Source of the DNA: Candidatus Undinarchaeota archaeon
GTDB lineage: Archaea > SpSt-1190 > JASMDC01
DNA: 64,000 nt
Assembly: GCA_964519305.1 (NCBI GenBank)
Contig: CAZFHY010000006.1
Coordinates: forward strand, 86,099-150,098
Direction: 5' to 3'
In this document: positions 14,198 through 37,355 of the stretch, one piece after another
Position numbering within the stretch: the first letter of the stretch is position 1
Layout: every line of letters starts with the position of its first letter
Position numbers and translations under genes: made by a program
Notes under the pieces: model-generated
What the model was told of the DNA's origin: nothing
The model's input: the letters and a program-made list of their open reading frames with translations, nothing else
Databases searched by the model: none

Positions 14198-14213
14198 GGT
14201 CGAAAAGGGGCCT

Positions 14214-14228
14214 GTTACCTTAATAAAC
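14214..14228. promoter_or_regulatory. shared divergent BRE/TATA-like element (ccttaataaacg)
   Basis: Located between rSAM start (about 14197, minus) and membrane gene start (14250, plus); the same cc-ttaataa motif recurs upstream of other genes in the window. Confidence 0.4.
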
Positions 14229-14249
14229 GTTACACGGGTTCGTTCCATC

Positions 14250-16008: not shown

Positions 16009-17292
16009 TTAGCTCAACCGAACAAGCTTCTCGCACGGGAACTGGAATCCCTCTGGCATTGGTCGTCCTGTCGGGGGCGCCAAGCAGTAGATGATCGTGT
16101 CGCAGTCCGTGAAGAGGACCGGGAAGCACACCCCCTCGTCCGGAAGCTCGCCCTCATCGGGCTGTGGCAGGTCGAGGCAGATGTTGGTCCCTTTCACCTT
16201 CGACGGCTTCAGAGGCTGGCCGTCGCAGTAGGGCATCTCGCCCTCGCAGTTGGAGTTCACCGTGTCGCCCGTGAACGTGAGAACACGGGCGTACTGTGTG
16301 ACCGGGATCATGCACGGTAGGTCCTCGTTCGCAGTGGTCGCACACCCGATCTGCTTCCACGCACCGTCCAGGGAACATCCCGAGGGATTTGGATCAGTGG
16401 TGGGTGCTGGGGTCCCGAGCGGCGGTACTTCCCCCCGCTCGAGCTTGAGGCACGGCGGTTCCCCCTCCTCGAGAGGCTCGTCGTCCACGGGACAGAAGAA
16501 GAGCGAGTCGCAGTCGATGAACGTGAAGGGGATGCAGGGCTCACCCTCCTCTCTCTCCATGCAGAGCTGGTTCCCGTCAACGATCTTGCCCGTGAACGCC
16601 TCGTCCTTGTTACAGAAGCTACCGCGGCATCCGAATGTCCCCGTGCCCCCGTCGGTGTAGGTGAGCATCACAGTGGCATAAGCGAGAGGTGCAGGGCTCG
16701 GCATTTCGCGGCCTTCCAGGTCGGTGTGCCCGGTCTGGACCCATGATCCTGTGAGGGAGCAGCCAGTTGTTCCGGTGGCCGGCGTCGCTGATGGAGACGT
16801 GACAGGTATCGGGCTGGCCGTGGCCGCGATCGGATTCGGTGTCGGGCTGGTTGTCGCATCTACCGTATTTTCGGTCATGGGCGACGGATCCTCGTCAACG
16901 GTCGGTTCCGGCTCGGTGCCGTTCATCAACGTCTCCCAGGGGACGGACGTGGGAACCGCTCCATCGCCCCCACTGGTCCCCGTGAGCCCGTCCAGGTAAC
17001 CGCCCTGGTACCCGATGAGCGCCACGCCCAGAACGAGCACCGCAACCATGCTCAGAAGGACAGGAAGACTGCTGGATGCGGCCTCTACGGCCACGACCTC
17101 CTCGACAGGGGCGGCCGTCGCCTCCACGTACGCGGCCTGGGCCTGGAGCGACTGGAATGCGGTGTCCACGGCGGCGGGGTCGTATCCGGACTGGATCATG
17201 TAGGAGCGTACCTGGTAGGGGGTGTAGCCCTGGTTGAGATACTCCTGGATATAGTTGGCGTAGTAGCTCGTGTAGTCCTGGTACGCCTCCAC
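16009..17292 (-). CDS. type-II membrane protein with conserved N-terminal cytoplasmic module and two extracellular Cys-rich repeats
   Basis: 427 aa; N-terminus YTSYYANYIQEYLNQGYTPYQVRSYMIQSGYDPAAV, single TM, Thr/Pro linker, two ~115-aa 8-Cys modules. Confidence 0.55.
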   Translation of the reverse strand: MEAYQDYTSYYANYIQEYLNQGYTPYQVRSYMIQSGYDPAAVDTAFQSLQAQAAYVEATAAPVEEVVAVEAASSSLPVLLSMVAVLVLGVALIGYQGGYLDGLTGTSGGDGAVPTSVPWETLMNGTEPEPTVDEDPSPMTENTVDATTSPTPNPIAATASPIPVTSPSATPATGTTGCSLTGSWVQTGHTDLEGREMPSPAPLAYATVMLTYTDGGTGTFGCRGSFCNKDEAFTGKIVDGNQLCMEREEGEPCIPFTFIDCDSLFFCPVDDEPLEEGEPPCLKLERGEVPPLGTPAPTTDPNPSGCSLDGAWKQIGCATTANEDLPCMIPVTQYARVLTFTGDTVNSNCEGEMPYCDGQPLKPSKVKGTNICLDLPQPDEGELPDEGVCFPVLFTDCDTIIYCLAPPTGRPMPEGFQFPCEKLVRLS

Positions 17293-17315
17293 GATATTCG
17301 TATGGCAGTTGGGTA

Positions 17316-18086
17316 TTAAGTGGATTTGCCTTCGCGGGCCAGCGCCTCGCAGGGCACTTCCACGCCCGCGGCCGGGGGGCGGTCCACTGGCGAGAGGCAG
17401 TACACCATCGTATCGCAGTCAACGAACTCCAGCGGGTAGCAGAGGCCCGTGGTGTCCATGCAGATGCGGCGACCATCCTCTGTCCTGGCGGACGTGCCCT
17501 CGCCCGGGGGACAGTACGGTTCTTTCCCCTCGCACTCGAGAACGGCGGTCCCGCCCTCATCGATTGTGACTATCCGCGCATAGTCCTCCAGTGCCACAGC
17601 GCATGGTCGCTCCTCACCGTCTGTGGAGGCGCACCCAATCTGACGCCAGCGCCCTTCGATCGGGCACTCGAGCTCCGGGTCCACGCTCCGTGGCGTTGGT
17701 GTGGGGCTGGCTGAGGCGGTGCGACGCTGTGCGGTTCTTGTACTCGTGACGGCCTGGAGCTGCGTGCGGACAATAGGTTCAGCCTGGATCCCGCTGGTAG
17801 AGGTGAGGTTGTGGAGGAGACCTTGCTGATATGCAACAACAAACCCTCCTATGAGCACCAACACGGCAAGGAGAGCGACCACAGTTCCCCGGGATTGTCC
17901 TTCATTGGTCGGTGTCGGCGGCTCCTCCCCTTTAACGAGGGCCTCCGCAGTGGCCTCGTCGTACCCCATCTCGATGAAGAGCTCCTTGACCTGCTCGGGT
18001 GGGTAGCCCATCTGCAGGTACTCCTGAGCATAGGATGCATAGTAGCTGGAGTACTGGGCATCCCCCATCGGGAGGATACTCATCAC
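17316..18086 (-). CDS. paralog of 16009-17292 (same N-terminal module, one Cys-rich module)
   Basis: 256 aa; N-terminus YSSYYASYAQEYLQMGYPPEQVKELFIEMGYDEATAEALV, TM, Cys-rich ectodomain. Confidence 0.55.
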   Translation of the reverse strand: MMSILPMGDAQYSSYYASYAQEYLQMGYPPEQVKELFIEMGYDEATAEALVKGEEPPTPTNEGQSRGTVVALLAVLVLIGGFVVAYQQGLLHNLTSTSGIQAEPIVRTQLQAVTSTRTAQRRTASASPTPTPRSVDPELECPIEGRWRQIGCASTDGEERPCAVALEDYARIVTIDEGGTAVLECEGKEPYCPPGEGTSARTEDGRRICMDTTGLCYPLEFVDCDTMVYCLSPVDRPPAAGVEVPCEALAREGKST

Positions 18087-18123
18087 TAGTGCTTTAATTG
18101 GTTTCTATGGGACCTCTGCAAGC

Positions 18124-18651
18124 TCAGAGCTTTTCGAAAGTGAGGTCCTTGGGTGGCATGCACATGGAGGCCACGGTGATGTGGAGTCGGTCCTCCTCGC
18201 CCTGGTAGATGGCAAGTGTCCGTGCGTCCATGGCGCGACCCTCGGATACCCGGTAGGCCTTGTTCCTGGAGAGGTAGTGGGAGCCGGTGAACGTCACGTC
18301 GAGCCACTTTTCCTCGCTCATGCCGTTGCCCCGTCCTTGTAGATGGAGCCCCTGCTCGTCCTCGTAGATGAGGAGCTTCGGGGCTTCGGGGAGGAGGGAG
18401 TCGGCCTGGATGAGATAGCCGTTGTCCAGCTCCATGTAAGAACCGTTCTCGAAAAGCGACTCTACGAGGTCGAGCTGGTTGTAGAGGGACTCGAGCGCGG
18501 CCCCGGGCACGGGTCTTAGTGAGCCCGCGAACCCGACGTTGTAGCCGGCGGCGGCGGGCGAGGCGAAGGGTTCGAAGACCTCTAGCCCCGATACGTCCAA
18601 TCCGGTCCCGGCCTCGGCCGCGTCCATATCGAGAAGATACATGATCATCAC
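18124..18651 (-). CDS. hypothetical protein
   Basis: 175 aa ORF with balanced composition; overlapping alternative frame 18086-18676 is Arg-rich and rejected; TATA-like tttaaaaa at about 18690 upstream. Confidence 0.4.
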   Translation of the reverse strand: MMIMYLLDMDAAEAGTGLDVSGLEVFEPFASPAAAGYNVGFAGSLRPVPGAALESLYNQLDLVESLFENGSYMELDNGYLIQADSLLPEAPKLLIYEDEQGLHLQGRGNGMSEEKWLDVTFTGSHYLSRNKAYRVSEGRAMDARTLAIYQGEEDRLHITVASMCMPPKDLTFEKL

Positions 18652-18689
18652 TTGTCCTTGCGGACGGAGGCGACAAGCAATGGTCCGTT

Positions 18690-18850
18690 TTTAAACATTT
18701 TCTTTGGATTTGACACGAAATCGCACGATTTGGGCTTATTCCCCGAAAAAACGGCTATTAAGCCTTAATAACATCTTTGAGCGTCTGTAGGGCGTCGAAG
18801 CGCACCGCATACTTTCATGCTATGTGAACTACCCCTCACCAATTAGAGGG
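18690..18850 (-). ncRNA. putative omega-RNA (reRNA) region at the right end of the tnpB element
   Basis: By analogy with IS200/IS605 TnpB systems the guide RNA overlaps the 3' end of tnpB and extends downstream; an oligo-T run (gccgttttttcgggg on the minus strand) lies near 18745; boundaries not determinable by eye. Confidence 0.25.
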
Positions 18851-20150
18851 GCTTCCCGCTTCGATACTGTTTCCAGCTCCACGGGCGCATCGGGTGGTCC
18901 CCACCCTGAGCGATTCTGAATGTTGATTGCTGCGTTCAGGTCGCGGTCAATGGTAAGGCCGCAGTTCCAGCAGCTATGTACTCGAACCGACAGGTCCTTC
19001 TTCACTAGCATACCACAACGGCTGCACATCTGAGAGGTGTTTTTCGGGTCAACCAGTACTACCTTCCCACCAGCCTCTTCCGCTTTGTAGGTGGTGTACT
19101 GGATGACCTTGTTCCAAGAAGCATCAACAATGGACTTTGCTAGATAGTGGTTTTTCATCATATTGAGGATATCGAGTTTCTCGAAGGTGATGGTCGAGTA
19201 GTTATCAGCAAGCTGACGGGAGAGCTTGTGGGCGAAGTCGGTGCGCTGGTTTCGGACCTTGCGGTGCACTTTGGCAAGCGCCTTCTTAGCCTTTTTCCTA
19301 CGGTTCGAGCCAATCTTTCTTCTTGAGATCCGACGCTGACGCGTCTTGATATTTTTCTCCGACTCTCGGAGGAAGCGTGGATTCTCGATGACGGCCCCAT
19401 CGGAGAGAGTGGCGAAATTCTCAAGGCCGACATCCACGCCGACGGCGATCCCGTCATGTGATCTAGCCTCGACTTTTACCTCACAGGAGAAGACGACGTA
19501 CCACTGATCAACATCGCGCTTGACGGTGCAGGTCTTTATCCTACCTTCGAGCGGTCGATGTAGCTTAATGCGAACGGGACCGATCTTCGAGAGTTTGAGA
19601 TGCTGTTCATCCGGAGAAAGTGAGAAGCCGCTCTGCGGATAGGTGAATGAGTCATATCTCCCCTTGCCCTTGAACCGGGGGTATCCGGGAGTTTCACCGT
19701 TCCTCACACGACGGAAGAACGCGTCGAACGCCTTCCTCAACCTCCGGAGGACATCCTGAAGTACTTGGGAGTGGACCTGTTGCTGATACTCATCCCTGTT
19801 TCCCGGGAGGGCGTCCTGTTGGTCCCTGTAGGTGACGCATCGTTGCTCATCCTTCCAGGCATCCGTGCGTTCTGCAAGTGCGTTGTTATAGAGCCTACGG
19901 CAGGTCTCGAGTGTGAATATTAGAATCGATTCCTGAGACTTGTTCGGATACAGACGATATCTGTAGCTACGTATCACTGTTTCCCCGTCCCCCACCAGAT
20001 ATCCTATTGGATGAAATAGTATTGCCGTGAATAAATAGGACTGGGAGGTGGCGTGCCAGTACTCGTTCAGGAAGTAACTTTCGAGTAAGTCACCTCCCTC
20101 TCGGAAGGCGACATCCCGCCGAAACGTAGAAAAGAGTTAGTCATCATACG
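18700..20150 (-). mobile_element. IS1341-like (tnpB-only) insertion element, approximate boundaries
   Basis: tnpB plus flanking lower-GC ends; imperfect hairpin gggaggtg...cacctccc at 20043-20097 near the putative left end. Confidence 0.45.
18829..19995 (-). CDS. tnpB: IS200/IS605-family transposase accessory protein TnpB (RuvC-like nuclease with zinc finger)
   Basis: 388 aa; canonical N-terminus RSYRYRLYPNKSQ, central RuvC-like region, C-terminal CxxC...CxxC zinc finger (CSRCG...CWNCG); no tnpA adjacent. Confidence 0.85.
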   Translation of the reverse strand: MGDGETVIRSYRYRLYPNKSQESILIFTLETCRRLYNNALAERTDAWKDEQRCVTYRDQQDALPGNRDEYQQQVHSQVLQDVLRRLRKAFDAFFRRVRNGETPGYPRFKGKGRYDSFTYPQSGFSLSPDEQHLKLSKIGPVRIKLHRPLEGRIKTCTVKRDVDQWYVVFSCEVKVEARSHDGIAVGVDVGLENFATLSDGAVIENPRFLRESEKNIKTRQRRISRRKIGSNRRKKAKKALAKVHRKVRNQRTDFAHKLSRQLADNYSTITFEKLDILNMMKNHYLAKSIVDASWNKVIQYTTYKAEEAGGKVVLVDPKNTSQMCSRCGMLVKKDLSVRVHSCWNCGLTIDRDLNAAINIQNRSGWGPPDAPVELETVSKREAPLIGEG

Positions 20151-20151
20151 A

Positions 20152-21471
20152 GTGGTCATGCGGGTGCTCCTCCTGGCCCCACGCGTGACGGAGGGCGAGT
20201 CCACTCTTCCTTTGGGGCTGGCTTATATCGCCTCCGTGCTCGAGGCCGATGGATGCGAGGTCCTTGGACGCGACCTATCCTTCACAGGACCTGAGGACGT
20301 TGCACAGGAGGCCGCCGACCTAGAGGTGGACGTGGTGCTCGCATCCTCGCTCACCAGCACCCTGGGCCAGGTGTCGGCAGCATGTGACAAGCTCCGACGC
20401 GCGACGGGGGTCCCTATCGCCCTGGGCGGCCCTCACGCCACAGCTCTACCGACCCACGCACTGGACGCCGGTGGCTTCGACGCTGTGCTGGTTGGCGAGG
20501 GTGAGGACCGGGTGCTCCCGCTCGTCAGGGCACTGTCCGGGAGCGGCCGGTTGACACGCGTCCCCGGACTCCGCCTCCCCGATGGTGCGTCAACGGGCCC
20601 GGCTCTGTCGCCTCCCGATCCGGATGCTCTTCCCTTTCCACGACGAGATGCCTTCCCCGAGAGCTTGTACTCGGGCATGCCATCCCGGGGTCCGTATACT
20701 CCGCTCATCACCTCTCGCGGGTGTGGTCGCCGGTGCGCTCACTGTCCTTCCCGTTCCCTCGTGGGGGGTCCGAGACGGCGTTCTCCGGACAACGTGGCCG
20801 ACGAGGTGGAACACATACTCTCGTGCGGGTACCGTGAGGTCCACGTGGAGGATGATGGTTTCACCGAGGACCGGGGCCATGTGCTTGGAATCTGTGATGC
20901 CTTCAAGGAGCGTGGACTGGACATCGACTGGGCGTGCACCAACGGGCTCCATCCGGACGACCTGGACGAGGGCCTTCTAGCTTCCATGGCCGGGGCCGGT
21001 TGTTACTCGATCGCCCTGGGTATCGAGTCCCTTGACCGATCTACCCTGGCCACTCTGTGCAGACCTATGGACCTGGAACGTATCGCAGGACTTGTCCGTG
21101 CGGCCCACGACCACGGTATTGAGGTCTGTGGTTACTTCATGCTCGGCATTCCGGGGATGGAGCTCAATGATGGGGCATCCCTGGCCGACGAGGCACTTGC
21201 CCTTGACCTCGACACCGCCCATTTCTCCGTGTTCTCACCCTTGCCCGGATCACCCATATTCTCCCGTTTGGCAGCTGATGGAGCATCGGTTGATGAGCTG
21301 GTGGCCGGTCGCGTCCCTGGGATGGACCGGGCCACTCTCGAAGTGGAAAGTACTCGGGCGTACCGCCGCTTCTACGCGGGGCACAAGGGAGTTGCCGTGG
21401 CACGCAAGGCCCTTTCCACTGGCAGACCGCTCGAGCCGATAGTCAAAAAGTTTAAAGACTGGTTCGTCTAA
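20152..21471 (+). CDS. B12-binding domain radical SAM protein (class B)
   Basis: 439 aa; N-terminal B12-binding-like region, CGRRCAHC radical SAM motif. Confidence 0.75.
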   Translation: MVMRVLLLAPRVTEGESTLPLGLAYIASVLEADGCEVLGRDLSFTGPEDVAQEAADLEVDVVLASSLTSTLGQVSAACDKLRRATGVPIALGGPHATALPTHALDAGGFDAVLVGEGEDRVLPLVRALSGSGRLTRVPGLRLPDGASTGPALSPPDPDALPFPRRDAFPESLYSGMPSRGPYTPLITSRGCGRRCAHCPSRSLVGGPRRRSPDNVADEVEHILSCGYREVHVEDDGFTEDRGHVLGICDAFKERGLDIDWACTNGLHPDDLDEGLLASMAGAGCYSIALGIESLDRSTLATLCRPMDLERIAGLVRAAHDHGIEVCGYFMLGIPGMELNDGASLADEALALDLDTAHFSVFSPLPGSPIFSRLAADGASVDELVAGRVPGMDRATLEVESTRAYRRFYAGHKGVAVARKALSTGRPLEPIVKKFKDWFV

Positions 21472-21481
21472 CGCCCACCTT

Positions 21482-22897
21482 ATGGGCAAGCGTGTGGTTT
21501 TCCTTCGGGCCGATCCGGAACGGCTCTCGCCGGGACACCACCCGCGCAACGCCTACCCCTGCATGAACATCCGTTACAGTGCCTCCGTGGCCATGGCCAT
21601 GGGGTACGATGTGGAGGTCATCGACATGGCAGCGAGCCTGCCGAGCGGCACACTGGCCGAATCGGTGGCCGCAGCACGACCTGACGCAGTAGTATGCGAT
21701 GTCATCACCCCTGCCGTCCAGTTCACTCTTGACGCCGTCGAGCGGATCGGGGTCCCGGTCCTCGCTATGGGACAGCATTCATCGGCGCTACCGCGGACAT
21801 TACTCGATAGAGAGGGGCCGGTGGACGGCTGTATCGTGGGCGAGGCCGAACAAACGCTCCAAGAGGCACTGCCCGCTATCATGGCAGGGGACCTGTCATC
21901 CCTTGCCGGAATGGCCGGGCTCGTTGTCCGGTCACCCGATGGGCCCATCGAAGGACCGCCCCGCGCTCCTCTCGAGCGGCTCGATGAGCTCCCCTATCAG
22001 GCCCATACCTCTCACCACGGGAGCTACTACACGCACTATCCTATTCGGACCCGGGGCCGCCGTCGGTTCGGTTTCATCGAGGCGGGCCGTGGCTGCCCGC
22101 ACTCGTGCTTATTCTGTTCACAGACACTGCGGATATCCTATGGCAACCGGGTCCGGCTACGATCGCACGAGAGCGTGGCCGCTGAGGTCGATTATCTCGT
22201 CCGTGAGCTCGATGTGAACGCGCTCGTGTTCCTGGACGACGCCTTCTGTCTCGATCACAAGTTCGCCCATGGCATCTGCGACTCCCTTATCGAACGGGGG
22301 CTCAACGACAAGGTGTCATGGCTGGTGCAGACCCGTGTAGACGCGGTCGACGAGGACCTACTGACCCACATGCGTGAGGCTGGCTGCTCCTCAGTCTGCT
22401 TCGGTGTCGAGTCAGGCAGCCAGCGTGTGCTAGATGTGTTGCGCAAGGGCGTCAAGCTCGACCAGATCCGGGCAGCGTTCCAGATGGCACATGATGCGGA
22501 CCTCCTCAGGGTCGGGTTCTTCATGCTCGGTAATCCGACAGAGACCCGGGAGGAGCTTGAGAGCACCAAGGCCTTCTGCCGTGAGCTTGCCCCGGACTTC
22601 ATTCAGGTCGCGTTCTTCACGGCGTACCCGGGCTCGGCCGCTTGGGCGGAATGGGGCGACACGACCGACTACGACTCCTACACCCACTATAACGCAGTGA
22701 TCAGCAACCGGAGCGAAATGAGCAATGAGGAACTGATCGAGCTCCATCGGGAGTTCTATCTCACCTTCCTTTCCCGTCCGGACTTCGTCGCACGCTATGC
22801 CCGCTACCGTCTTCCCAGGGCCCTTGCGAACTGGCGCGAGGAAGCGGAGCTGATGCGGACGGCGTTCGGGTTCTTCACGTCCCAGCACAGTGATTAG
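21482..22897 (+). CDS. B12-binding domain radical SAM protein (class B)
   Basis: 471 aa; CPHSCLFC radical SAM motif; follows previous rSAM gene by 10 nt. Confidence 0.75.
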   Translation: MGKRVVFLRADPERLSPGHHPRNAYPCMNIRYSASVAMAMGYDVEVIDMAASLPSGTLAESVAAARPDAVVCDVITPAVQFTLDAVERIGVPVLAMGQHSSALPRTLLDREGPVDGCIVGEAEQTLQEALPAIMAGDLSSLAGMAGLVVRSPDGPIEGPPRAPLERLDELPYQAHTSHHGSYYTHYPIRTRGRRRFGFIEAGRGCPHSCLFCSQTLRISYGNRVRLRSHESVAAEVDYLVRELDVNALVFLDDAFCLDHKFAHGICDSLIERGLNDKVSWLVQTRVDAVDEDLLTHMREAGCSSVCFGVESGSQRVLDVLRKGVKLDQIRAAFQMAHDADLLRVGFFMLGNPTETREELESTKAFCRELAPDFIQVAFFTAYPGSAAWAEWGDTTDYDSYTHYNAVISNRSEMSNEELIELHREFYLTFLSRPDFVARYARYRLPRALANWREEAELMRTAFGFFTSQHSD

Positions 22898-23601: not shown

Positions 23602-23632
23602 ATCAAGCGGACAGGCCACATGCTTTAAAAGT

Positions 23633-24649: not shown

Positions 24650-24755
24650 GGGTGGGCGGAGATAAGTTAATTACATAAACCTTCCGCGGGGCCGCCGGGA
24701 ATACCGGCACGCCACCCCGGTTCGGTTATAATACGATGAACGCCTCCTCCTAGCC

Positions 24756-25049: not shown

Positions 25050-25057
25050 TCATTATC

Positions 25058-26056: not shown

Positions 26057-26079
26057 GAAAAGAAGAGCGGCCTGACAAA

Positions 26080-26092
26080 CCTTTTTAAACCT
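26080..26092 (+). promoter_or_regulatory. TATA-box-like element (ctttttaaacc)
   Basis: About 22-30 nt upstream of ATG 26112. Confidence 0.35.
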
Positions 26093-26111
26093 GCGACGGG
26101 AACGTTCCACT

Positions 26112-27635
26112 ATGCCTGAGTCCCTGGCGCCATATGTAGCACAGCTGCTACGCCAGGGGTATACGAAAGACCAGGTGCATGACACCCTCAGGGAGCAGGG
26201 ATGGGAGGATAAGGCCATCAGCGAGGCTCTAGAGCAGGCGACAGTGCTCGCTGAACAACCCGAACCGCGGCTCGCCCCCTTTCCCAAACCCATGGTCCCG
26301 CCGGCGGTAGTGGCCGGGGTCTTGGGAATAATCGTAGTGATCGTGTTCGCGTCCATGTTCATGGGCGGCTCGGAGCCAACGCCGGTGGAGCCCACGCCCA
26401 CACCACGCGCTACACCTGAGCCCACCCCTGAGCCCACGGTCGCACCTACAGCCACGCCGAAACCGGAACCGAAGGGATTGGGCGTCGACCTGGTCGGAGT
26501 GACGGTGCGTTCCAAGGACGAGACCCAGTTCCTCCACCGCGACTTCACTGTTGACGCGATCAAGCTCGTGTACGATGTCCTATCTGCGCCGAGCGCGCAG
26601 GAGCGTTACGAGTCGATCCAGAAATTCGTGGGATATTGTAAGAACAGGACCTTCCCTAATCCCGAGCTCGACCGTGAGCTCGAGGAAATGGACAAGGACA
26701 TGGAGAACTACAAGTTCTACTTGGAGACCAACAACATACCCAAGGCCACAGAGGTCCTGGAAAACGATATTTTCGGACGATTCAGCGCGAAGCGTGTCGA
26801 GGGACCATTACCCGTCACCGTCTCGCTGAGCTACGGGACCGGTCTTGTCCTCAACCTGACCTCCACGACCCAGCTCATTGGTTTGAACACGCTCTGGGAG
26901 ACATCCCATCTCATCCAACCGAACATCCCTGATGACGTGTGGACCGGGGTGTGGGACGAGGCGTGGACGAACACGTTCCCCGCGGGTGCTGAGCGCTCAT
27001 CCTTCACCGTGGACATGCTCTATCTTGACCAGACCACGCTCGAAGTGACCCCGCCGCGGTCGGCGGCGTTCAAGTATTACGGGAAGAGCGGCCTGCGATC
27101 GCTACAGGGGGATGGCTACACGATTCCGAGCTTCGAGGCCGTGCTGATCTACCAGATCGGAGGCGAGGTGTGCACCCAGACCGAGCGGACATGGTCCGGC
27201 GGGAATGTCGGACAGTGGGTTTGCCCCGAAAGGGTGAAGGAGGGTGAGTTCTTCGTCAAGAAGAACGTGACCTTTTCGTTCCTGGACCTCTCGCCAGTGC
27301 AGGGGAACCTTACGGCCGTCTATCGTACCGAGCTCAAGGCGAGCATCAGTGGCAATCCCATCGACCTCACTTTCCTGTTCCTTGAAGGGAAGGAGCCATT
27401 CTCCAAATCATCGGCCTCCGCCCTCCTCAAGGACCTGAAGCTCAATATCTATACTGCAGAGACCGAAGGGACGGCAAAATGTCCCGTCCACGTCGTCGAC
27501 GCTTACACAAATGCACCGGTCAGCTATGTAGCGGCCGTTGCTGTGGGCGAGTACATGATGGTTATGTACGCCGACGACAAGCCCAATCCAGCCTACTTCC
27601 GCAGTCTGGCCGATGCACTGTGCACAAAGGTCTAG
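26112..27635 (+). CDS. type-II membrane protein of the same N-terminal-module family, large extracellular domain
   Basis: 507 aa; N-terminus APYVAQLLRQGYTKDQVHDTLREQGWEDKAISEAL, TM helix, Pro/Thr-rich linker. Confidence 0.5.
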   Translation: MPESLAPYVAQLLRQGYTKDQVHDTLREQGWEDKAISEALEQATVLAEQPEPRLAPFPKPMVPPAVVAGVLGIIVVIVFASMFMGGSEPTPVEPTPTPRATPEPTPEPTVAPTATPKPEPKGLGVDLVGVTVRSKDETQFLHRDFTVDAIKLVYDVLSAPSAQERYESIQKFVGYCKNRTFPNPELDRELEEMDKDMENYKFYLETNNIPKATEVLENDIFGRFSAKRVEGPLPVTVSLSYGTGLVLNLTSTTQLIGLNTLWETSHLIQPNIPDDVWTGVWDEAWTNTFPAGAERSSFTVDMLYLDQTTLEVTPPRSAAFKYYGKSGLRSLQGDGYTIPSFEAVLIYQIGGEVCTQTERTWSGGNVGQWVCPERVKEGEFFVKKNVTFSFLDLSPVQGNLTAVYRTELKASISGNPIDLTFLFLEGKEPFSKSSASALLKDLKLNIYTAETEGTAKCPVHVVDAYTNAPVSYVAAVAVGEYMMVMYADDKPNPAYFRSLADALCTKV

Positions 27636-28432
27636 ACCGGTATCTGAGGGGACTCGACCAGTCGGTCGATGCCCATGCGCACCAGTTCATCATCACTGGG
27701 GAGAGCATCGTTCTTTGCGAACACGGCACATCCCTTGAGATAGAGGGGGACGCCCATGGTCGGATGGTCGAGGCGGAAGAGCGAGCCCTTACAGGATTGT
27801 GTGCAGGGGAACACTCCCCACTCCGGCCGTCCAGGGCGGGTGGAAGCGAGCCCAATCAAGCAGTACCTGCTGATGGTGACGAACACGTACGGGTGATGGA
27901 ACGAGCCGTGGAGAGGATTATCCCCCTCTCCCAGGCGAAGGGATACGCCTTGGAAGGGATTCTCCACTTCCACCCGGCGGACGCCACGTGAGGCCAGCAG
28001 GCTGCGGACCGCGGGTACGTCCATGTTGGTCGTGCGGAACCGTTCCCAGGCCTCGGGTGTGAGGGCTTCCTTTGCTTGCATGAGCCGCGGACCACGCTTC
28101 TGCTTGTGGATGATGCCGCCCACTACGGGTTCGAGCCGGCCTTCCTCAGCGATAATGTCGATAACGCCCCAATCGTTGGCGACGACCTCGGTGCCGTCAG
28201 GAAGTTCGGCAAGGAGGGATTTCAGCCGGTTAATGCCCTCCTGTGTGACGGGCGGTGTGACGAAGGTTACGGCCACATCGGCGTCATCTGCCCTCTTAAG
28301 AGCATCCGTGAGCTCAGTTCGTGTGGGCATGAGGCGCTGACAATACCCGTTCCCCAGGTAGAGCCGGTCATGCCCGGTCCAGTCGATCGTGTCCAACAAC
28401 TCAACCCTGGAGACGATGATCGCACGCTCCAT
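27632..28432 (-). CDS. peptidase U32 family protein (second of a coupled pair)
   Basis: ORF track 27632-28459; start proposed at MERAII (ATG 28432) overlapping the upstream stop (TGATG) with GGTGAGGTG SD-like motif; C-terminal Cys cluster. Confidence 0.55.
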   Translation of the reverse strand: MERAIIVSRVELLDTIDWTGHDRLYLGNGYCQRLMPTRTELTDALKRADDADVAVTFVTPPVTQEGINRLKSLLAELPDGTEVVANDWGVIDIIAEEGRLEPVVGGIIHKQKRGPRLMQAKEALTPEAWERFRTTNMDVPAVRSLLASRGVRRVEVENPFQGVSLRLGEGDNPLHGSFHHPYVFVTISRYCLIGLASTRPGRPEWGVFPCTQSCKGSLFRLDHPTMGVPLYLKGCAVFAKNDALPSDDELVRMGIDRLVESPQIPV

Positions 28433-29529
28433 CACCTCACCACCTCGGGCCAGTAGCATTCAGCGGCCGAGCAGTTCCAGCCATAAAGATCCCTGTACAG
28501 GGTCCGGCATCTTTCCATGTATGCAGTATTATCCTCCGAACCCTCGAGCTCCTCCAGTGCACGGCGCACGAGGATGATGTCGTCCACCTTCTTGCTCGTG
28601 GGATGGATCCGACCCTGTATCTTTACGACGGTGACACCCGCGTCGCGCATCAAGCCCAGTCCGCAGATGCCGCATCCGCTACCGCCCCAGTTGGGTGCCC
28701 ATTGCAGGCCGAACCGTTCCTGAACGGCCACGGCCAGCTCATCGCTACCCTCCAGGGCTTCGACCTGGACCGCCGAGGAATTTAGACAGAGATGGCTGGA
28801 GGCGACCCGCGCGATCGGTCCAGCGTACTGGACGGTCTTCGGGATATGTCGCATGGCTCGTACCAGATGCGCCCGCATGCTTCCCAGACGAGGACTGAGG
28901 AGGGCGAACATCCCCCTGGTAGTGCTCTTGTGCCGGGCCTCAGTGAGACCGTGGAAGTACGTGCACAGCCCCTCCACATGGGGGCAACGGGCGTTGAGCA
29001 CGAATCCCTCGAGGGTGATGTCGGGAGCCGCTTGGGCTATGTCGGCGATCTCCTTGATAGAGAGGTGATGGGGGAGGATCACACGTGAGGCGCCGAGACG
29101 TTGGTAGAACCGGGCGGCTTGGGCATTGAACACCGCGTTGATGGTGCTGACGTGGATGTCGATACCCACATCGTTGTCATGGAGGTGGGACATTAGGCCA
29201 AGATCGGCAACAATGAGGGCGTCAGCCTCAGCAGCGATGGCCTCATCGACCTCCTCGATTAGATAGGTGAACTGGGCTGCGGAGTAGAAGTCCTGGTTAT
29301 AGGCGACGTTCACGCGTACGCCGAGGTCATGGGCGATCGTCAGGGCCTTACGCAGTTCGTCATAGGATGGCATGGAAGAGCGAGTGTACATCTCGCGGCT
29401 GACACCCCCCATGTGGGTGTAGCGCTTGCGCCACCGGTCGGAGAGAACTGCACAGTACAGTTCAGTAGCTCCCGCACGGACGATGGGTTCCACCTCATCG
29501 GCCCGGTTGATGGGAGCGAGAATATCCAT
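28432..29529 (-). CDS. peptidase U32 family protein
   Basis: 365 aa; N-terminus MDILAPINRADEVEPIVRAGATELYCAV typical of U32, C-terminal Cys motif (CGICG...CSAAECYWPE). Confidence 0.7.
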   Translation of the reverse strand: MDILAPINRADEVEPIVRAGATELYCAVLSDRWRKRYTHMGGVSREMYTRSSMPSYDELRKALTIAHDLGVRVNVAYNQDFYSAAQFTYLIEEVDEAIAAEADALIVADLGLMSHLHDNDVGIDIHVSTINAVFNAQAARFYQRLGASRVILPHHLSIKEIADIAQAAPDITLEGFVLNARCPHVEGLCTYFHGLTEARHKSTTRGMFALLSPRLGSMRAHLVRAMRHIPKTVQYAGPIARVASSHLCLNSSAVQVEALEGSDELAVAVQERFGLQWAPNWGGSGCGICGLGLMRDAGVTVVKIQGRIHPTSKKVDDIILVRRALEELEGSEDNTAYMERCRTLYRDLYGWNCSAAECYWPEVVR

Positions 29530-29600
29530 CGCCAGCTACCCCAACGGACAGGTTTTTATGTGCTTCGACAGCGCCCCGCTGTGCACATCCAATAAAAACG

Positions 29601-31415
29601 ATGAACGTGCACCCCTTGATTGGAATGGAGCCCGTGCTCTCGGTAGATGATCACTTCGGTGTGCTGGAACGACTGGAGGCCATGGCCTTCGAGCCATCCG
29701 AGTGGCATGACCTCAACCTCGCTGCTCACGGGCTCTCGCTGACGGGTCAGTTCGAGCGTGCTGCCATCGTAGAGCGTGTCAAGCAGAAGATACGCATCCT
29801 CCCGCACCAGATCGAGACTGCGCTGCGTGTGCTCAACGACCTTGGCCATCGCGCGTTATTGGCCGATGAGGTAGGGCTGGGCAAGACCGTGGAAGCGGGT
29901 ATCGTGCTCAAGGAGTACCTGGTCCGTGGCCTTGTGGACCGCGTGCTCATCCTCACACCTGCTCCCTTGGTCCGTCAGTGGCAGGGAGAGCTTGAAGAGA
30001 AGTTCGGTGAAGGGTTCATCACCCCTCTTGACGATGGGTTCCGTGGGTTCGAGAAGGAGGACCGTCTCATCTGCTCCATGGACAGGGCCCGCCAGCCCAA
30101 GAACGCACCCTTTGTCCAAGCCCGTCCATGGGACCTCCTTATTGTGGACGAGGCCCACCGGCTGCGCAACGTTGAGACGAAGCTCCACCAGTTCGTGGCC
30201 GGGATCGACGCTCGTTACCTGCTCATGCTAACCGCGACCCCCATCCAGAACAACCTCTTCGAGCTGTTCAACCTCATAGACCTCCTCAAACCGGGTCATC
30301 TGGGTACGCGGAACCAGTTCGGTGTCTATTTCGTAGGGGACCGTAAGGCTCAGACGCTCGAGAACGAGGGGGAGCTGCGCGAGCTTCTGGGCCAGGTCAT
30401 GGTGCGCAACCGTCGCGCCGATGTAGGGCTCCAGCTCCCAGACCGCCATGTCCACGACATCATGCTTGATCCTTCTCCCCAGGAGGCCGAACTGTACCGT
30501 CGGGTCATCGGCTATATCGCTGACCAGTACGACGAGGCCGACGACGGTGGGGAGTTCGACGCCGCTGAGGCCCGTGGGACGACACGTGGTATCGACCTTC
30601 TGAGGCTCATGACGCTCGAGCGTGAGCTCGTGTCATCCAGTCAAGCTCTGGCCGCTACCCTGCGCAAGATAATCCCACGAGAGCCCGATCCCGAGAAGCG
30701 CGTGCTTCTGGACGAGCTGTACGAGCTTTGCCTGTCGGCCCGGGACAGCACCAAGGCCCGCAATCTCCTGGAGCTCGCTCAGCGCTTGGACACTTCCCTC
30801 ATCGTGTTCACGCAGTTCATCTCCACCCAGGAGCATCTGCGGGAACGTCTGGATGCCGCAGGCCTGTCGCCCGTGGTGTTCAACGGCAGCATGTCACCCT
30901 CCGAAAAGGAGTTCGCTATCCAGGGTTTCAAGGAGCGGGGCGGTGTGCTCCTGTGCACTGACTCGGGGAGCGAGGGCCGGAACCTCCAGTTCGCCAACGT
31001 GCTGGTGAACTACGACCTTCCCTGGAATCCCATGCGCCTGGAGCAGCGTATCGGCCGGATCCACCGCATCGGCCAAGAGCGGGACGTCCACGTGTTCAAC
31101 CTAACGCTCGCGGGCACGATCGAGGACCACATACTCACGACGCTCTATCGCAAGATCGACCTCGTCACCGCGGCTGTGGGCGATATGGACCTGATCCTTT
31201 CCAAGCTGCCCGATGGCGTATCCTTCGAGCGCCGACTGTTCGAGCTGTCGTTGCGCATCAAGGACAAGCGTTCCTTCGACGATGGGATGAAAGAGTTCGC
31301 CGATGAGATGGCGGAGGCCAAGGAGCTGGCAGCCAAGGTGCATCAGCTGGATGCCCGTGTGCTCGAGCGCTTCGACCTATCGTCACTGGAGAATGCGGGG
31401 GTGCGAATCGAGTGA
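29601..31415 (+). CDS. SNF2-family helicase/ATPase (compact, RapA-like)
   Basis: 604 aa; motif I LADEVGLGKTVEAG, motif II LLIVDEAH, motif III LTATPIQNN, helicase-C motifs DSGSEGRNLQ and QRIGRIHRIGQ. Confidence 0.75.
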   Translation: MNVHPLIGMEPVLSVDDHFGVLERLEAMAFEPSEWHDLNLAAHGLSLTGQFERAAIVERVKQKIRILPHQIETALRVLNDLGHRALLADEVGLGKTVEAGIVLKEYLVRGLVDRVLILTPAPLVRQWQGELEEKFGEGFITPLDDGFRGFEKEDRLICSMDRARQPKNAPFVQARPWDLLIVDEAHRLRNVETKLHQFVAGIDARYLLMLTATPIQNNLFELFNLIDLLKPGHLGTRNQFGVYFVGDRKAQTLENEGELRELLGQVMVRNRRADVGLQLPDRHVHDIMLDPSPQEAELYRRVIGYIADQYDEADDGGEFDAAEARGTTRGIDLLRLMTLERELVSSSQALAATLRKIIPREPDPEKRVLLDELYELCLSARDSTKARNLLELAQRLDTSLIVFTQFISTQEHLRERLDAAGLSPVVFNGSMSPSEKEFAIQGFKERGGVLLCTDSGSEGRNLQFANVLVNYDLPWNPMRLEQRIGRIHRIGQERDVHVFNLTLAGTIEDHILTTLYRKIDLVTAAVGDMDLILSKLPDGVSFERRLFELSLRIKDKRSFDDGMKEFADEMAEAKELAAKVHQLDARVLERFDLSSLENAGVRIE

Positions 31416-32494
31416 GCAACGATCTCGATAGCTTCCTTACTGCCTACAGGCGAGTGGCCGGACTCTCTCCCGGGGAGGCTGACAAGGATGTGGGAGTGGC
31501 CGATGCCATCTCTGCTGCTAAGGGTAGAGGATTGGTGGCCGTTAAGAGGCTGGTCGAGCCTCCTGGCATGAGCAAAGATCCTTTCGGAGATGTGAAGCTA
31601 ACTCACTGTCGCACGGTCCATCGCTCGACCCGCCGGAGCAGCCGGAACTTCGCACTCTGCTTCTCTTTCCGGGTAGGGATCCGCACGGCCAGTCTTCGGG
31701 AAGCGGTGTACCATGTAGCAGTGGACATGGCCACGATGGAACCGCTGGCCGGGTTCACAGGCTTTGCCGGACTGCACTACGAGAACGTCGACTACCGTCC
31801 CCGTCTTTCACATGAGCTGATCCAGCGTGCTTTCGCAAGGGCGCAGGCGGAGCTCGGTCGTCGGATGCGTCCTATGCAGGAAGAAGAACTGGCGCGCTTG
31901 ACCGTCCAGCACCGGACCGCGGCTACCAGGGTGAAGGCCTACTTCCATCAGCTCCAGAAGGAGGTGCTCGAGGCAGAGCGCCGTGTCCAGCAGCGCATCG
32001 ATTCCACTAGTGCAATGATGGCCTCTGCCACCACGCGAGAACTGAAGGAGAAGCGTCAGAAACGGCTGGTCCAGCTCGAGGCCGAACTGGAGAAGGTGCG
32101 GGACCGGAACGACTTCACACTCCTTGACTACCGGAAGCGCATGGAGGGCGAGCTCACGAAGGAGGAGGGCCGGTGCGGTCTGGACACCGACGTGACCATC
32201 ACCTCCGCCGTGGTCCTGGAGTACGACACATCGGTGGAAACCTACCTTCTCGTTGGCCGGCATGCACACGCAGAGCTGGAGCGTGCACGTTCGCCCTTCG
32301 CAAAGCCAGATACGCTACAGTGTGCCTGCTGTGGCCAAGAGGCGGTAACACTGGCACTCGATGCAGCAGGACATCTGGTATGCCCCTCCTGTGCCCGGGT
32401 CTGTACGTTGTGCGGTTCCGTGCGCAGTGAACTGTGCTCACAGGGCCGTCCCTCGAAGCTCCTTACCCAGCCCTGTACGCGATGCGGGCTGTGA
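31412..32494 (+). CDS. hypothetical coiled-coil protein with C-terminal zinc ribbons, coupled to SNF2 helicase
   Basis: 360 aa; GTG start overlaps helicase stop (GTGA); central charged helical region; C-terminal CACCG...CPSC...CTLCG...CTRCG. Confidence 0.5.
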   Translation: MSNDLDSFLTAYRRVAGLSPGEADKDVGVADAISAAKGRGLVAVKRLVEPPGMSKDPFGDVKLTHCRTVHRSTRRSSRNFALCFSFRVGIRTASLREAVYHVAVDMATMEPLAGFTGFAGLHYENVDYRPRLSHELIQRAFARAQAELGRRMRPMQEEELARLTVQHRTAATRVKAYFHQLQKEVLEAERRVQQRIDSTSAMMASATTRELKEKRQKRLVQLEAELEKVRDRNDFTLLDYRKRMEGELTKEEGRCGLDTDVTITSAVVLEYDTSVETYLLVGRHAHAELERARSPFAKPDTLQCACCGQEAVTLALDAAGHLVCPSCARVCTLCGSVRSELCSQGRPSKLLTQPCTRCGL

Positions 32495-32558
32495 GTGGGA
32501 CCCGGTCAATCCCGCGGGTGGCGGTTTTAAATAACAACGGCCGTAACTCTGACCGTCC

Positions 32559-33230
32559 ATGGCCGAGCTGCGTGTCACATGCATCGTTCCCACCAGGAAC
32601 GAAGAGCGGACCATCAGTGAGCTGCTAGAACGCATCAGTCCGCACTGTGACGAGATAGTAGTGGTCGACTCGAGCACTGACAGCACCCCTGAACGTGCGG
32701 CAAAGCATGCTCGCGTCGTACGGGAGGATCAACGAGGGAAGGGGATCGCGCTCCGCACGGGAGCGCGGGAGGCCACGGGCGATATCCTCGTGTTCCTCGA
32801 TGCAGATGGTTCTCACATCCCTGAGGACATACCCGAGCTGGTCCTGCCTATCAAGGAAGGCCGTGCTGACATGGTAATCGCCTCACGTTCGCTTGGCGGG
32901 AGCGAGGAGCTCTCAGGCACTCTGAACCAGTGGTTCCGGGCTACTGCTAGCGGCGTCATAACCCTAATTATCAATTACCGCTTCGATTCGTGGATCACCG
33001 ATAGCCAGAACGGCTTCCGCGCCATCCGACGGGACGTGTTTCTCAAGCTCGGGACCACTGCCGTCATCTTCGACATCGAGACGGAGATGCTCATGAAGGC
33101 CCTTAAGCAAGGTCACACTGTGGACGAGGTGCCCAGTCGCGAGAAGCGACGACGGTACGGAAGTTCGGGCATCAACCTATGGTGGATGTGGTATCGGTAC
33201 GCCTGGACCACCTTCCGCAACCTTGTATAA
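32559..33230 (+). CDS. family 2 glycosyltransferase
   Basis: 223 aa; ...CIVPTRNEERTI...VVVDSSTDST...VFLDADGSH... GT2 motifs. Confidence 0.7.
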   Translation: MAELRVTCIVPTRNEERTISELLERISPHCDEIVVVDSSTDSTPERAAKHARVVREDQRGKGIALRTGAREATGDILVFLDADGSHIPEDIPELVLPIKEGRADMVIASRSLGGSEELSGTLNQWFRATASGVITLIINYRFDSWITDSQNGFRAIRRDVFLKLGTTAVIFDIETEMLMKALKQGHTVDEVPSREKRRRYGSSGINLWWMWYRYAWTTFRNLV

Positions 33231-33335
33231 TCATGTCGCGAGTGTCATGCCGTGTCAGGGCAGGTTAATAACCCTTAATAACTTATATTCTGCCGAATTA
33301 GGCCGTAAAACGCGATTTCCGGCCGATTTAGAGAA

Positions 33336-33348
33336 ACGTTTATATAGG
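33336..33348 (+). promoter_or_regulatory. TATA-box-like element (tttatatagg), preceded by direct repeat ttaataac x2
   Basis: AT-rich intergenic region 33241-33390; TATA about 45 nt upstream of ATG 33391. Confidence 0.35.
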
Positions 33349-33390
33349 GGCGGTGTTGCTCGGGTTCTCACACGAAAAGAGGCGAAGATT

Positions 33391-33825
33391 ATGTTCATGA
33401 CTGAAGCCATGTACGACGTTGCGGCTGTTGACCTTGCAGGTCACAACTCAGCGTACGATGGCCGTCTCGTTATTCAGGGCTATGACCGCGCGGGTAACGA
33501 CTTCGACTCTGGTCGATACATGGTCGATTTCGACCTTAGTGAGCGTATCGATGGCGAGTTCGACCTAATCGTCCACGGCATCGCTCAGGTTAAGAAGGAC
33601 TTCGCTCACCCCAGCTCGCCCGCCTATGGTGGCGCGTGGCTCAAGTACTCCGATCACGACGATGTACACGTCTCCGAGGACACCCAAGAGACCGTCATCG
33701 ACATCCGATCGGACCGCACCTACAAGATCCACCTCATCGACGAGCCTTCAGGCACCACCCAGGATTATCTCCTCACGAAGGAGGCCGGTGAACTGATCAT
33801 CGAACCGGTGCTCGGCGATCTCTAG
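33391..33825 (+). CDS. hypothetical acidic protein
   Basis: ORF track 33223-33825; internal Met (MFMTEAMYD) chosen because upstream part lies in the AT-rich promoter region. Confidence 0.4.
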   Translation: MFMTEAMYDVAAVDLAGHNSAYDGRLVIQGYDRAGNDFDSGRYMVDFDLSERIDGEFDLIVHGIAQVKKDFAHPSSPAYGGAWLKYSDHDDVHVSEDTQETVIDIRSDRTYKIHLIDEPSGTTQDYLLTKEAGELIIEPVLGDL

Positions 33826-33916
33826 GGCACCAACGATCTCATAGCGTACTTACCCTATCTAGGTATAGCTATCCCAGTTCTCACTTGGATTGAGGAATGT
33901 TCTCGTGGCCGCGGGA

Positions 33917-34633
33917 TTATCCGATGGTCACGGTCAGCTCTTCTTGTTTGATGTGCCGATAGTTGCCGCCAGTGTCCGAGGTGCACTGAGCTGGCTCGCA
34001 GAATGCGCATTCTTCACTCATGTAAAGGCACACATCGACGGCGAACGTCCTGGTTCCCACTGTTGTGTTGGCCGGGACCGTGAGCTTAATGTTGCTGAAC
34101 CCGATCTTGTGACTCTTCGCCGCGATAGTGCGCTTGCCAGAGAACCAATCCTGTCCTGAGAATGTATCCTCCTCCTTCGGGTGCAGGTTGATACAGAAGC
34201 ATCGCGGGTCCAGATCGTCGTTCTTGACGGCCACATAGAGGGAGCGCGGGGTGGAGTTGGAGGCGGCGATTTCGAAAGAGGAGGTCTCTAATGCCATCAG
34301 TTCGCTCGACATCTTCAGTTTGTCCTCGAGGCGGTCCCGTCGCTCAGCATCAGCACGGGCTTCCGGATCTAGGTTCGCATCAGTCTCGAACTGGGCACCT
34401 GTGATCCACTTCATGAAGGGCGGTATGAGCACTGTGACCATGATGAGGAAGATGATGGCAATGAGCGTTTTGATGATGCGTGGCGGCATCTCCGTCTCAT
34501 CGCCCGAGAGGGCCTTCGCCACCTCGGCGGAGCCGACACCCTTTTTGAGCAGCGCCCTGCGGATCTCGGGTTTTGTATGTCCACGCTCCTCGAGCGTACG
34601 GATCCAATCCCGGAGCTCTTCCTGCGACGGCAT
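33917..34633 (-). CDS. type-II membrane protein of the same N-terminal-module family
   Basis: 238 aa; N-terminus EELRDWIRTLEERGHTKPEIRRALLKKGVGSAEVAKAL, TM helix, Cys-containing ectodomain. Confidence 0.5.
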   Translation of the reverse strand: MPSQEELRDWIRTLEERGHTKPEIRRALLKKGVGSAEVAKALSGDETEMPPRIIKTLIAIIFLIMVTVLIPPFMKWITGAQFETDANLDPEARADAERRDRLEDKLKMSSELMALETSSFEIAASNSTPRSLYVAVKNDDLDPRCFCINLHPKEEDTFSGQDWFSGKRTIAAKSHKIGFSNIKLTVPANTTVGTRTFAVDVCLYMSEECAFCEPAQCTSDTGGNYRHIKQEELTVTIG

Positions 34634-37306: not shown

Positions 37307-37355
37307 GGGCACGTGGAGGTGCGCAAGATTAATAACGGTAGCGTCGACGGTCGGC

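Follow-up and report, generated by a model that had tools for sequence, protein, structure and literature searches.

Introduction

Why should membrane proteins whose outer parts differ from one another begin with the same short run of residues? The question is raised by four genes, here named A to D, on a 64-kb stretch of contig CAZFHY010000006.1 from a Candidatus Undinarchaeota assembly (this whole stretch of 64,000 nucleotides is called the window throughout). An initial annotation took their products for four paralogous proteins, in which a common cytoplasmic module of ~40 amino acids (aa), perhaps for adaptor or sorting purposes, is attached to variable extracellular domains, and saw in them a lineage-specific expansion. 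DPANN archaea live attached to other cells, and to our knowledge most of their surface proteins have no assigned function. The analysis below finds the module in all four proteins, predicts it to be a cytoplasmic three-helix unit, and traces it far beyond the Undinarchaeota.

A common N-terminal module in four membrane proteins

The open reading frames (ORFs) of A to D were found exactly where the initial annotation had placed them (Table 1), and the order of parts that it described could be seen in each. A hydrophilic N-terminus of ~45 residues, with no hydrophobic signal before it, is followed by a single strongly hydrophobic helix, the gap between module and helix being ~25, 12, 16 and 6 residues in A, B, C and D, respectively; transmembrane (TM) helices were called from Kyte-Doolittle hydropathy maxima. 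Behind the helix lie divergent Cys-rich or Pro/Thr-linked ectodomains, with 18, 10, 5 and 6 Cys residues in the C-terminal parts of A, B, C and D.

Within the window, the search space consisted of 952 six-frame ORFs. Leave-one-out hidden Markov models (HMMs) gave a mixed picture of the N-terminal similarity: A and B detected each other at E 2e-11 and the A+B+D model detected C at E 6.6e-5, but the A+B+C model failed to recover D. A profile of all four modules was searched against 1.84 billion representative proteins and matched 843 protein clusters at E ≤ 1e-3, 82 of them at E ≤ 1e-10; the best 149 proteins of the 843 clusters, referred to as the representatives, supplied 218 module instances. 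An outside-family HMM was built from 215 module instances with the orthologues of A to D removed, these instances having originally been recruited by a profile that contained D. It recovered all four window proteins at the E values listed in Table 1, and the next ORF reached only E 0.2. Therefore A to D are all members of the family, and no fifth copy is present among the 952 ORFs.

The 218 instances yield the consensus L-x2-Y-[IV]-x3-L-x2-G-[YHF]-[TS]-x2-Q-[IV]-[RK]-x2-L-[LI]-x2-G-[YW]-x4-[IV]-[DE]-x-A-[LF]. The motif first read from the window holds as a common ~40-aa module of A to D, but its spacing was off by one, and D carries G-V at the position where the consensus has G-[YW]. Orthologues of A, B and C were drawn from the search for representatives (P0011, P0015 and P0088). 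Constraint on the module is seen among the orthologues of D, where its mean identity of 87.5% exceeds the 70% of the ectodomain, and those of B likewise have the better-conserved module. Only 6 homologues of D were found, every one at least 71% identical, and the TM helix is nearly invariant among the D orthologues.

Full-length paralogy is confined to the tandem pair A and B (BLASTP E 3e-28), which have the module, TM helix, linker and ectodomain in common, whereas C and D share only the module with this pair or with each other; the proposal of four paralogous proteins could thus not be upheld. The Cys-rich ectodomain of ~115 aa occurs twice in A and once in B, and alignment of these copies retains 26 invariant columns, 8 of them Cys. 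The ectodomains of A/B, C and D had no sequence match in Pfam, NCBIfam or the PDB, and the AlphaFold2 (AF2) model of the B ectodomain was of low confidence. A and B may have arisen by a recent tandem duplication, and C and D could have gained the module independently via domain shuffling.

Distribution of the module beyond the window

A DNA pattern of 72 nt, the degenerate back-translation of the consensus core, was searched in one-genome-per-species reference genomes and returned 87 loci, where about one match would be expected by chance (our own estimate from the information content of the pattern, rather than the output of a tool). Inside the window the pattern matches C only, and 100 shuffles gave 0 matches. 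Archaeal labels are carried by 80 of the 87 loci, mostly of DPANN lineages: by record label, 27 are Woesearchaeota, 12 Nanoarchaeota, Nanobdellota or Nanoarchaeia, 5 Aenigmatarchaeota and 6 simply 'archaeon'. Another 30 are named 'uncultured Methanosarcinales', a third-party-assembly label that is treated here as doubtful, because other genes at these loci often match Woese- or Nanoarchaeota loci best. Bacterial labels are borne by 7 loci, namely Liptonbacteria, Saccharibacteria, Patescibacteria, one unclassified bacterium, two Gammaproteobacteria and one Pseudomonadales. A scan of viral contigs for the module gave 0 matches.

Judged by the labels of the 87 loci, the module is therefore a DPANN-wide family with some members in bacteria of the candidate phyla radiation (CPR). 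It is a promiscuous domain and not an Undinarchaeal invention, and its spread over 843 clusters and 87 loci contradicts the idea of a lineage-specific expansion. The window itself derives from a marine DPANN archaeon whose proteins bear Undinarchaeales labels, and the Undinarchaeota are placed within the DPANN group (Nanobdellati). Identical copies of the proteins are present on numerous metagenome contigs in public databases, the longest of 338 kb; the exact C protein was found on at least 24 public contigs and the exact A protein likewise in public assemblies. Cluster mates at ≥90% identity are named 'Candidatus Undinarchaeales archaeon' by NCBI (e.g., MDP7079145 and MDP7493092), and a few are instead named 'Methanopyri archaeon'.

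Scans of Pfam-A (2025 copy) and NCBIfam, the member databases of InterPro covered here, found no dedicated model for the module at curated cut-offs, and A to D stayed below the cut-offs. No description of the module was found in the open-access literature searched.

Two mirrored architectures and predicted topology

Two mirrored layouts could be found both in the 149 representatives and in the 90 module-bearing ORFs of the 87 genome loci. In the layout of the window proteins, 1-4 N-terminal modules precede one TM helix and an outside domain; in the other, a signal peptide and an outside domain of up to ~4,500 residues lead to one TM helix and 2-7 modules at the extreme C-terminus. The genome loci contain 44 ORFs with N-terminal modules followed by a TM helix and 36 with a TM helix followed by C-terminal modules, but 0 with a TM helix on both sides of the module; 10 ORFs have no TM helix, and these are mostly short or ended by the edge of the locus. 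In nearly all full-length proteins examined the module is terminal and stands 5-60 residues from the TM helix, and it is internal, away from both termini, in ~8 of the 149 representatives. The module is often present in several copies, which are connected by low-complexity linkers. A minority of proteins have N-terminal modules before polytopic domains (DUF2157, Yip1 and DUF4234), and small proteins consisting solely of modules exist among the representatives. The outside domains are mutually unrelated; among them are CARDB-like, parallel beta-helix, laminin-G and PsbP-like domains, as well as several that are Cys-rich.

In both layouts a cytoplasmic position is predicted for the module, because N-terminal modules are not preceded by a signal peptide, because C-terminal modules occupy a tail that signal peptide and second TM helix put inside, and because Lys and Arg are enriched on the side of the TM helix where the module is. 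When residues up to 12 positions from the TM helix are counted, 128 of 191 proteins have more Lys+Arg on the side of the module than on the other, and 17 have less (Wilcoxon p 5e-17). Together with the diversity of the partner domains, this supports the earlier view of a common cytoplasmic module on variable extracellular domains. In the C-terminal-type proteins of the score-ranked sample, the number of modules rises with the length of the ectodomain (rho 0.55, p 3e-5).

Fold of the module and its relation to known systems

AF2 models computed with no alignment show three helices in the modules of both B (residues 10-25, 30-39 and 44-51) and C (residues 6-14, 19-28 and 33-47 of a model of residues 1-52). 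The predicted local distance difference test (pLDDT) score of C is 84, and block means of ~89-95 were obtained for residues 21-50 of B. A Foldseek search of the 52-residue module model against the PDB gave nothing below E 1.

Profile comparison points to RecX. RecX_HTH1 is the commonest Pfam match (11 of 49 modules at E<0.01), followed by families of the UBA type, and its Pfam cut-off of 26 bits is passed by two relatives (P0013 at 33.5 and P0143 at 28.6 bits). In hhalign, the module alignment matches residues 74-112 of Escherichia coli RecX, the second repeat, with 83.8% probability and E 7.9e-6, compared with 0.15% for a control, the UBA-like TS-N domain of EF-Ts; RecX comes ahead of UBA in both structure and profile comparisons. 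The RecX repeats, RecX_HTH1/2/3 (PF21982, PF02631 and PF21981; structures 3c1d, 3e3v and 3dfg), resemble the module as tandemly repeated three-helix units of ~40-50 aa that have the same pattern, [FY]-[IV]...L/R-x-x-G-Y-x-x-x-x-I-R-x-x-L-x-x-x-G-[aliphatic or aromatic]...A. On these models and profiles, the module is a three-helix unit of the RecX type whose sequence is close to ideal.

The window proteins were nevertheless rejected as members of the RecX family itself. RecX, a bacterial protein, is soluble, ~150-170 aa long and built of exactly three packed repeats; it is usually encoded beside recA and inhibits RecA filaments. The module, by contrast, occurs in 1-7 copies connected by flexible linkers, at the predicted cytoplasmic end of membrane proteins that are mostly archaeal, and once in each of A to D. 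The RecX_HTH1 scores of C (12.5 bits, or 18.1 for the module alone) and D (15.7 bits) lie below the cut-off, and the NCBIfam RecX matches are all far sub-threshold, with A at 17.8 bits against 189. A to D are not RecX because they remain below the cut-offs and lack the three packed repeats, the solubility, the bacterial host and the linkage to recA; no recombination gene was present among the scanned neighbours of A to D, all of which are unrelated to recombination.

Other systems resemble the module or its setting in part. UBA domains (PF00627 and relatives) share its size, three helices, a Gly-aromatic loop after helix 1 (MGY in B) and a similar spacing of hydrophobic positions, but match it only in a scattered and sub-threshold manner: B scores 11.6 bits against a cut-off of 22.4, and the UBA matches of 5 of 49 modules at E<0.01 are not convincing. 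The best PDB sequence match of the module profile is a de novo designed mini-protein, 8skx (HHH_rd4_0518, E 2e-8), whose matching segment VEELLRRGYSEEDIRRYLKKQGIDDREVDRAIK spans module helices 1-3. Designed HHH mini-proteins are likewise near-ideal and very stable three-helix bundles; they are artificial and have no evolutionary relationship with the module, and the match warns that folding rules dictate part of the consensus. ToxR/CadC-type proteins and bacterial proteins with a zinc ribbon, a TM helix and a variable domain are laid out as A to D are, with one TM helix between a variable outside domain and a small N-terminal domain, which is cytoplasmic in those proteins and predicted to be so in A to D; but their N-terminal domain is a winged helix or zinc ribbon, and neither a mirrored C-terminal version nor tandem arrays occur in them. 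Moreover, unlike its ToxR/CadC counterpart, the module is not basic, and A to D gave no Pfam match to Trans_reg_C or another DNA-binding helix-turn-helix (HTH) family. The Ltp lipoprotein repeats (4eqq) and CW_7 repeats are extracellular, in contrast to the predicted cytoplasmic module, and Lipoprotein_Ltp and CW_7 (PF07553 and PF08230) had no Pfam match except a weak one of CW_7 (E 0.06) in one relative. An archaeal type IV pilin-like class III signal was also considered for B and rejected: UpsA reached 18.9 bits against 130 over the TM helix, and where such a signal has a short charged N-terminus with the cleavage motif right before the hydrophobic helix, a folded domain of 50-75 residues precedes the helix here. 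The fold itself is known; the novelty lies in how it is used across DPANN archaea, where it tags membrane proteins at a terminus that is predicted to be cytoplasmic, often in tandem.

Putative function and alternative explanations

As the most likely role of the module, held tentatively and with somewhat more doubt than belief, we infer a cytoplasmic, membrane-proximal docking or anchoring handle for surface proteins. Through it, a wide variety of surface proteins would be tied to one another or to a common partner in the cytoplasm, and could thereby be anchored, clustered or positioned. Docking would take place via surface contacts of the rigid helical bundle, as with RecX repeats along the RecA filament, and not through DNA binding, against which the median net charge of the modules (0) is counted. 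A soluble protein that combines a module with a coiled coil, and the proteins made of modules only, are hints of soluble partners.

Several observations weigh against a docking handle. No conserved cytoplasmic partner was found in the 87 loci, the only recurrent neighbour being another extracellular protein. Nearly every conserved position could be explained by folding alone (core hydrophobics, Gly helix caps and an S/T-x-x-Q/E capping box), and this, along with the 8skx match, means that there is no clear conserved binding surface and that the similarity could be partly convergent. The module of C is less conserved than the ectodomain among C orthologues. The TM flanks of A to D have few charges on either side and a weak bias, the topology being a predicted one, and the correlation between module number and protein size was obtained in a score-ranked sample, in which N-terminal-type proteins show the opposite trend.

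The main rival, which we regard as unlikely, is a passive topology or retention plug, a partnerless hydrophilic knob that folds fast, is very stable and retains its end of the protein on the cytoplasmic side. Such a plug would fix the orientation of the TM helix and resist the extraction of a single helix under load on the ectodomain, for example during attachment to a host cell. The conserved positions of an idealised three-helix bundle, with a designed mini-protein as best PDB match, agree with it, as do the terminal and membrane-close position in both orientations (with few internal exceptions), the greater number of modules on larger type-I ectodomains, the concentration of the family in wall-less episymbiotic DPANN and CPR lineages, and the failure to find a partner gene in 87 loci. 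Folded N-terminal domains are also known to hinder the translocation of signal-anchor N-termini. Nevertheless, Lys/Arg flanks by themselves are normally enough for topology, the C-terminal tails of type-I proteins require no topology signal, and a plug fails to account for the soluble module-only proteins and for the protein with module and coiled coil; the reuse of one specific fold in hundreds of proteins suggests recognition instead. That the N-termini of A to D and many of the matches are alike merely as generic, ideal helix patterns, with no common origin or role, is improbable. Such convergence would fit the profile matches to de novo designed proteins at E 2e-8 to 1e-4, the A+B+C model that misses D, and the weak matches spread over many helical Pfam families; but the window search was clean, with four ORFs at E ≤ 4e-9 and nothing else better than 0.2 among 952, the 72-nt pattern, for which we estimate about one chance match, hit 87 loci nearly all in one archaeal superphylum, and chance similarity would not yield a TM-adjacent position and consistent sidedness.

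Three further readings assign the module a specific ligand. As a membrane-tethered binder of nucleic acids, it would be an HTH for DNA or RNA in a ToxR/CadC-like sensor or a tether between nucleoid and membrane, in keeping with the ToxR-type architecture (one TM helix between a small helical N-terminal domain and a variable domain outside), the small DNA-binding HTH domains that are the top, non-significant Foldseek matches, and the weak affinity of RecX for DNA. This is made distinctly improbable by modules that are neutral on average and acidic in A, B and C, by the lack of any DNA-binding HTH family that reaches its cut-off, by Foldseek matches that are all at E>1, and by tails of 5-7 copies on giant adhesin-like proteins, which are ill-suited to regulators. 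A UBA-like receptor would bind a ubiquitin-like protein or the neighbouring UEV-like array (35462-37699) and couple the surface proteins to ubiquitin/ESCRT-like sorting. The MGY loop motif and hydrophobic spacing of B resemble UBA, sub-threshold matches to UBA families occur in ~9 of 49 modules, and gene D stands in one same-strand row with a protein of ~five UBC-fold units that appear to lack the catalytic Cys; yet all UBA scores are below the cut-off (11.6 versus 22.4 bits for B), RecX does better in structure and profile comparison (0.15% for the TS-N control), no ubiquitin, ubiquitin-like, E1 or JAB gene was seen among the neighbours scanned, and most of the family belongs to DPANN lineages (in whose genomes ubiquitin-like genes were not searched for), so that we consider this receptor very improbable. 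An extracellular repeat that faces outward, as do phage Ltp or CW_7 cell-wall-binding repeats, and binds a surface ligand is hardly credible: N-terminal modules have no preceding signal peptide, type-I members have theirs behind the second TM helix that follows a signal peptide, the positive-inside bias places the module in the cytoplasm, and the Cys-rich and Pro/Thr-linked parts are on the opposite side.

A more specific form of the docking proposal, and a quite unlikely one, is that module arrays on the tails of adhesins or receptors bind along a cytoplasmic filament or coiled-coil scaffold in a DPANN-wide coupling system. The analogue would be the RecX repeats that line the groove of the RecA filament, and a soluble protein with a module, PGMG repeats and a coiled coil would be the candidate scaffold. 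If true, the coupling system would be a mechanical and organisational link from the surface proteins to the interior in minimal, wall-less episymbionts.

Genes A to D and their genomic context

Table 1. Coordinates of genes A to D and of their parts in the window.
Feature	Position	Strand	Basis
Gene A, 427 aa: module, TM helix, Pro/Thr/Ser linker, two Cys-rich ectodomain repeats	16009..17292	-	ORF
A, N-terminal three-helix module, residues 6-50, net charge -3	17143..17277	-	outside-family HMM, E 1.7e-16
A, TM helix, residues 76-95	17008..17067	-	Kyte-Doolittle maximum 2.66
A, ectodomain, two ~115-aa Cys-rich copies, residues 177-288 and 305-427	16012..16764	-	alignment
Gene B, 256 aa: module, TM helix, linker, single Cys-rich ectodomain	17316..18086	-	ORF, AF2 model
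B, N-terminal three-helix module, residues 11-55, net charge -7	17922..18056	-	outside-family HMM, E 3.9e-9
B, TM helix, residues 68-86	17829..17885	-	Kyte-Doolittle maximum 2.69; AF2 long helix 62-99
B, Cys-rich ectodomain, residues 140-256, homologous to the two of A	17319..17669	-	alignment, BLASTP
Gene C, 507 aa: module, TM helix, Pro/Thr linker, ~385-aa ectodomain	26112..27635	+	ORF
C, N-terminal three-helix module, residues 2-45 (numbering as in the family consensus), net charge -4	26115..26246	+	outside-family HMM, E 2.7e-14
C, TM helix, residues 62-84	26295..26363	+	Kyte-Doolittle maximum 2.84
Gene D, 238 aa: module, TM helix, ~155-aa ectodomain with 6 Cys	33917..34633	-	ORF
D, N-terminal three-helix module, residues 3-46, variant with G-H-T and G-V, net charge 0	34496..34627	-	outside-family HMM, E 2.1e-10
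D, TM helix, residues 53-74	34412..34477	-	Kyte-Doolittle maximum 2.68

The true start of B is probably Met7, because its close relative P0015 begins with MGDAQ, which aligns with Met7 of B. By inspection of the sequence, TATA-like A/T-rich boxes lie ~25-30 nt upstream of the starts of C and D and are less clear for A, and no obvious spacing of a ribosome-binding site was seen upstream of the starts of A to D, which together fit an archaeon.

Outside the window, the recurrent neighbour mentioned above was present in 18 of the 87 loci. It is a large Cys-rich extracellular protein of ~750-800 aa with a pilin-like N-terminus (KKRGQISFFIVAG), exemplified by L075:824-3151 (-) and found also in, e.g., L031, L046, L073 and L078, and it has no Pfam or PDB sequence match. 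The soluble protein with PGMG repeats is encoded at L095:3259-4266 (+), on a closely related contig and ~3 kb past the right end of the window. Its divergent module (E 3e-5) is followed by PGMGP repeats over ~150 residues and then by a coiled coil at the C-terminus, which has a weak FlaC_arch match, and only its last 131 aa had been annotated by the gene caller; a divergently oriented gene for a T2SSE-type (FlaI/PilB-type) ATPase adjoins it.

Gene D is the final gene of a same-strand row that also contains the 745-aa ORF at 35462-37699 (-). This ORF comprises ~five tandem UBC-fold units and contains five occurrences of the motif [YF]P..(P)P; its Pfam matches are UQ_con, UEV and RWD. The catalytic Cys is replaced in the unit that aligns with UbcH5b (FPNDHIDVGGSVVIPLL), and no equivalent Cys was noticed in the other units by inspection. 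This points to a series of inactive UEV-like domains, which is unusual in a DPANN archaeon. Its annotated start, which is overlapped by the ORF at 37356-40235 (-), is probably too far upstream. This overlapping ORF of 959 aa and one of 686 aa at 40223-42283 (-) lie on the same strand upstream of the UEV-like gene and have no Pfam match. Between D and the UEV-like gene, 34694-35461 (-) encodes a 255-aa protein that starts with TM helices, continues with an acidic part resembling a coiled coil and ends in a Cys-x2-Cys...Cys-x2-Cys zinc ribbon, and for which only weak matches were obtained (DUF7269 and TraP).

Directly upstream of the A/B pair is a gene of the TnpB/IS605 OrfB type at 18829-19995 (-), with matches to OrfB_IS605, Cas12f1-like TNB and HTH_OrfB; its location in a dip of GC content (0.547 at 18-20 kb) suggests the insertion of a mobile element. 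ARAGORN calls an 82-nt tRNA-Tyr (GTA) at 18510-18591 (+), which could be an intron-containing archaeal tRNA or a false positive; the call overlaps the perhaps spurious ORFs 18124-18651 (-) and 18086-18676 (-), and Rfam at the gathering threshold found no tRNA anywhere in the window. Three ORFs that resemble B12-binding radical SAM paralogues occur within 10 kb, at 12782-14251 (-), 20152-21471 (+) and 21482-22897 (+), the name being taken from cluster mates for 21482-22897 only and judged from sequence for the other two. Interspersed among them are genes for a glycosyltransferase, a Gfo/Idh/MocA oxidoreductase and, at 14142-16004, a polytopic membrane protein of 620 aa without a family match, and the genes around A/B may form a cluster for the modification of surface glycans or lipids. 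Directly downstream of C and convergent with it, a gene pair at 27632-29529 (-) encodes a U32 peptidase and a 275-aa protein without a family match, possibly the second subunit of a U32-type enzyme.

Implications for DPANN surface proteins

The module is short and easily recognised, and hundreds of surface and membrane proteins that have nothing else in common carry it at their predicted cytoplasmic end. It could thus be used for listing surface proteomes, as a marker of topology, and as bait for whatever underlies the membrane. We consider it a useful family to define and of moderate interest, with a mechanism that is proposed by inference. Should it be only a stable plug, it would be a natural, near-ideal mini-domain that still merits a family model in the domain databases. 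If it does bind a common docking partner, it would provide the first handle on how adhesins are anchored and organised in these minimal cells.

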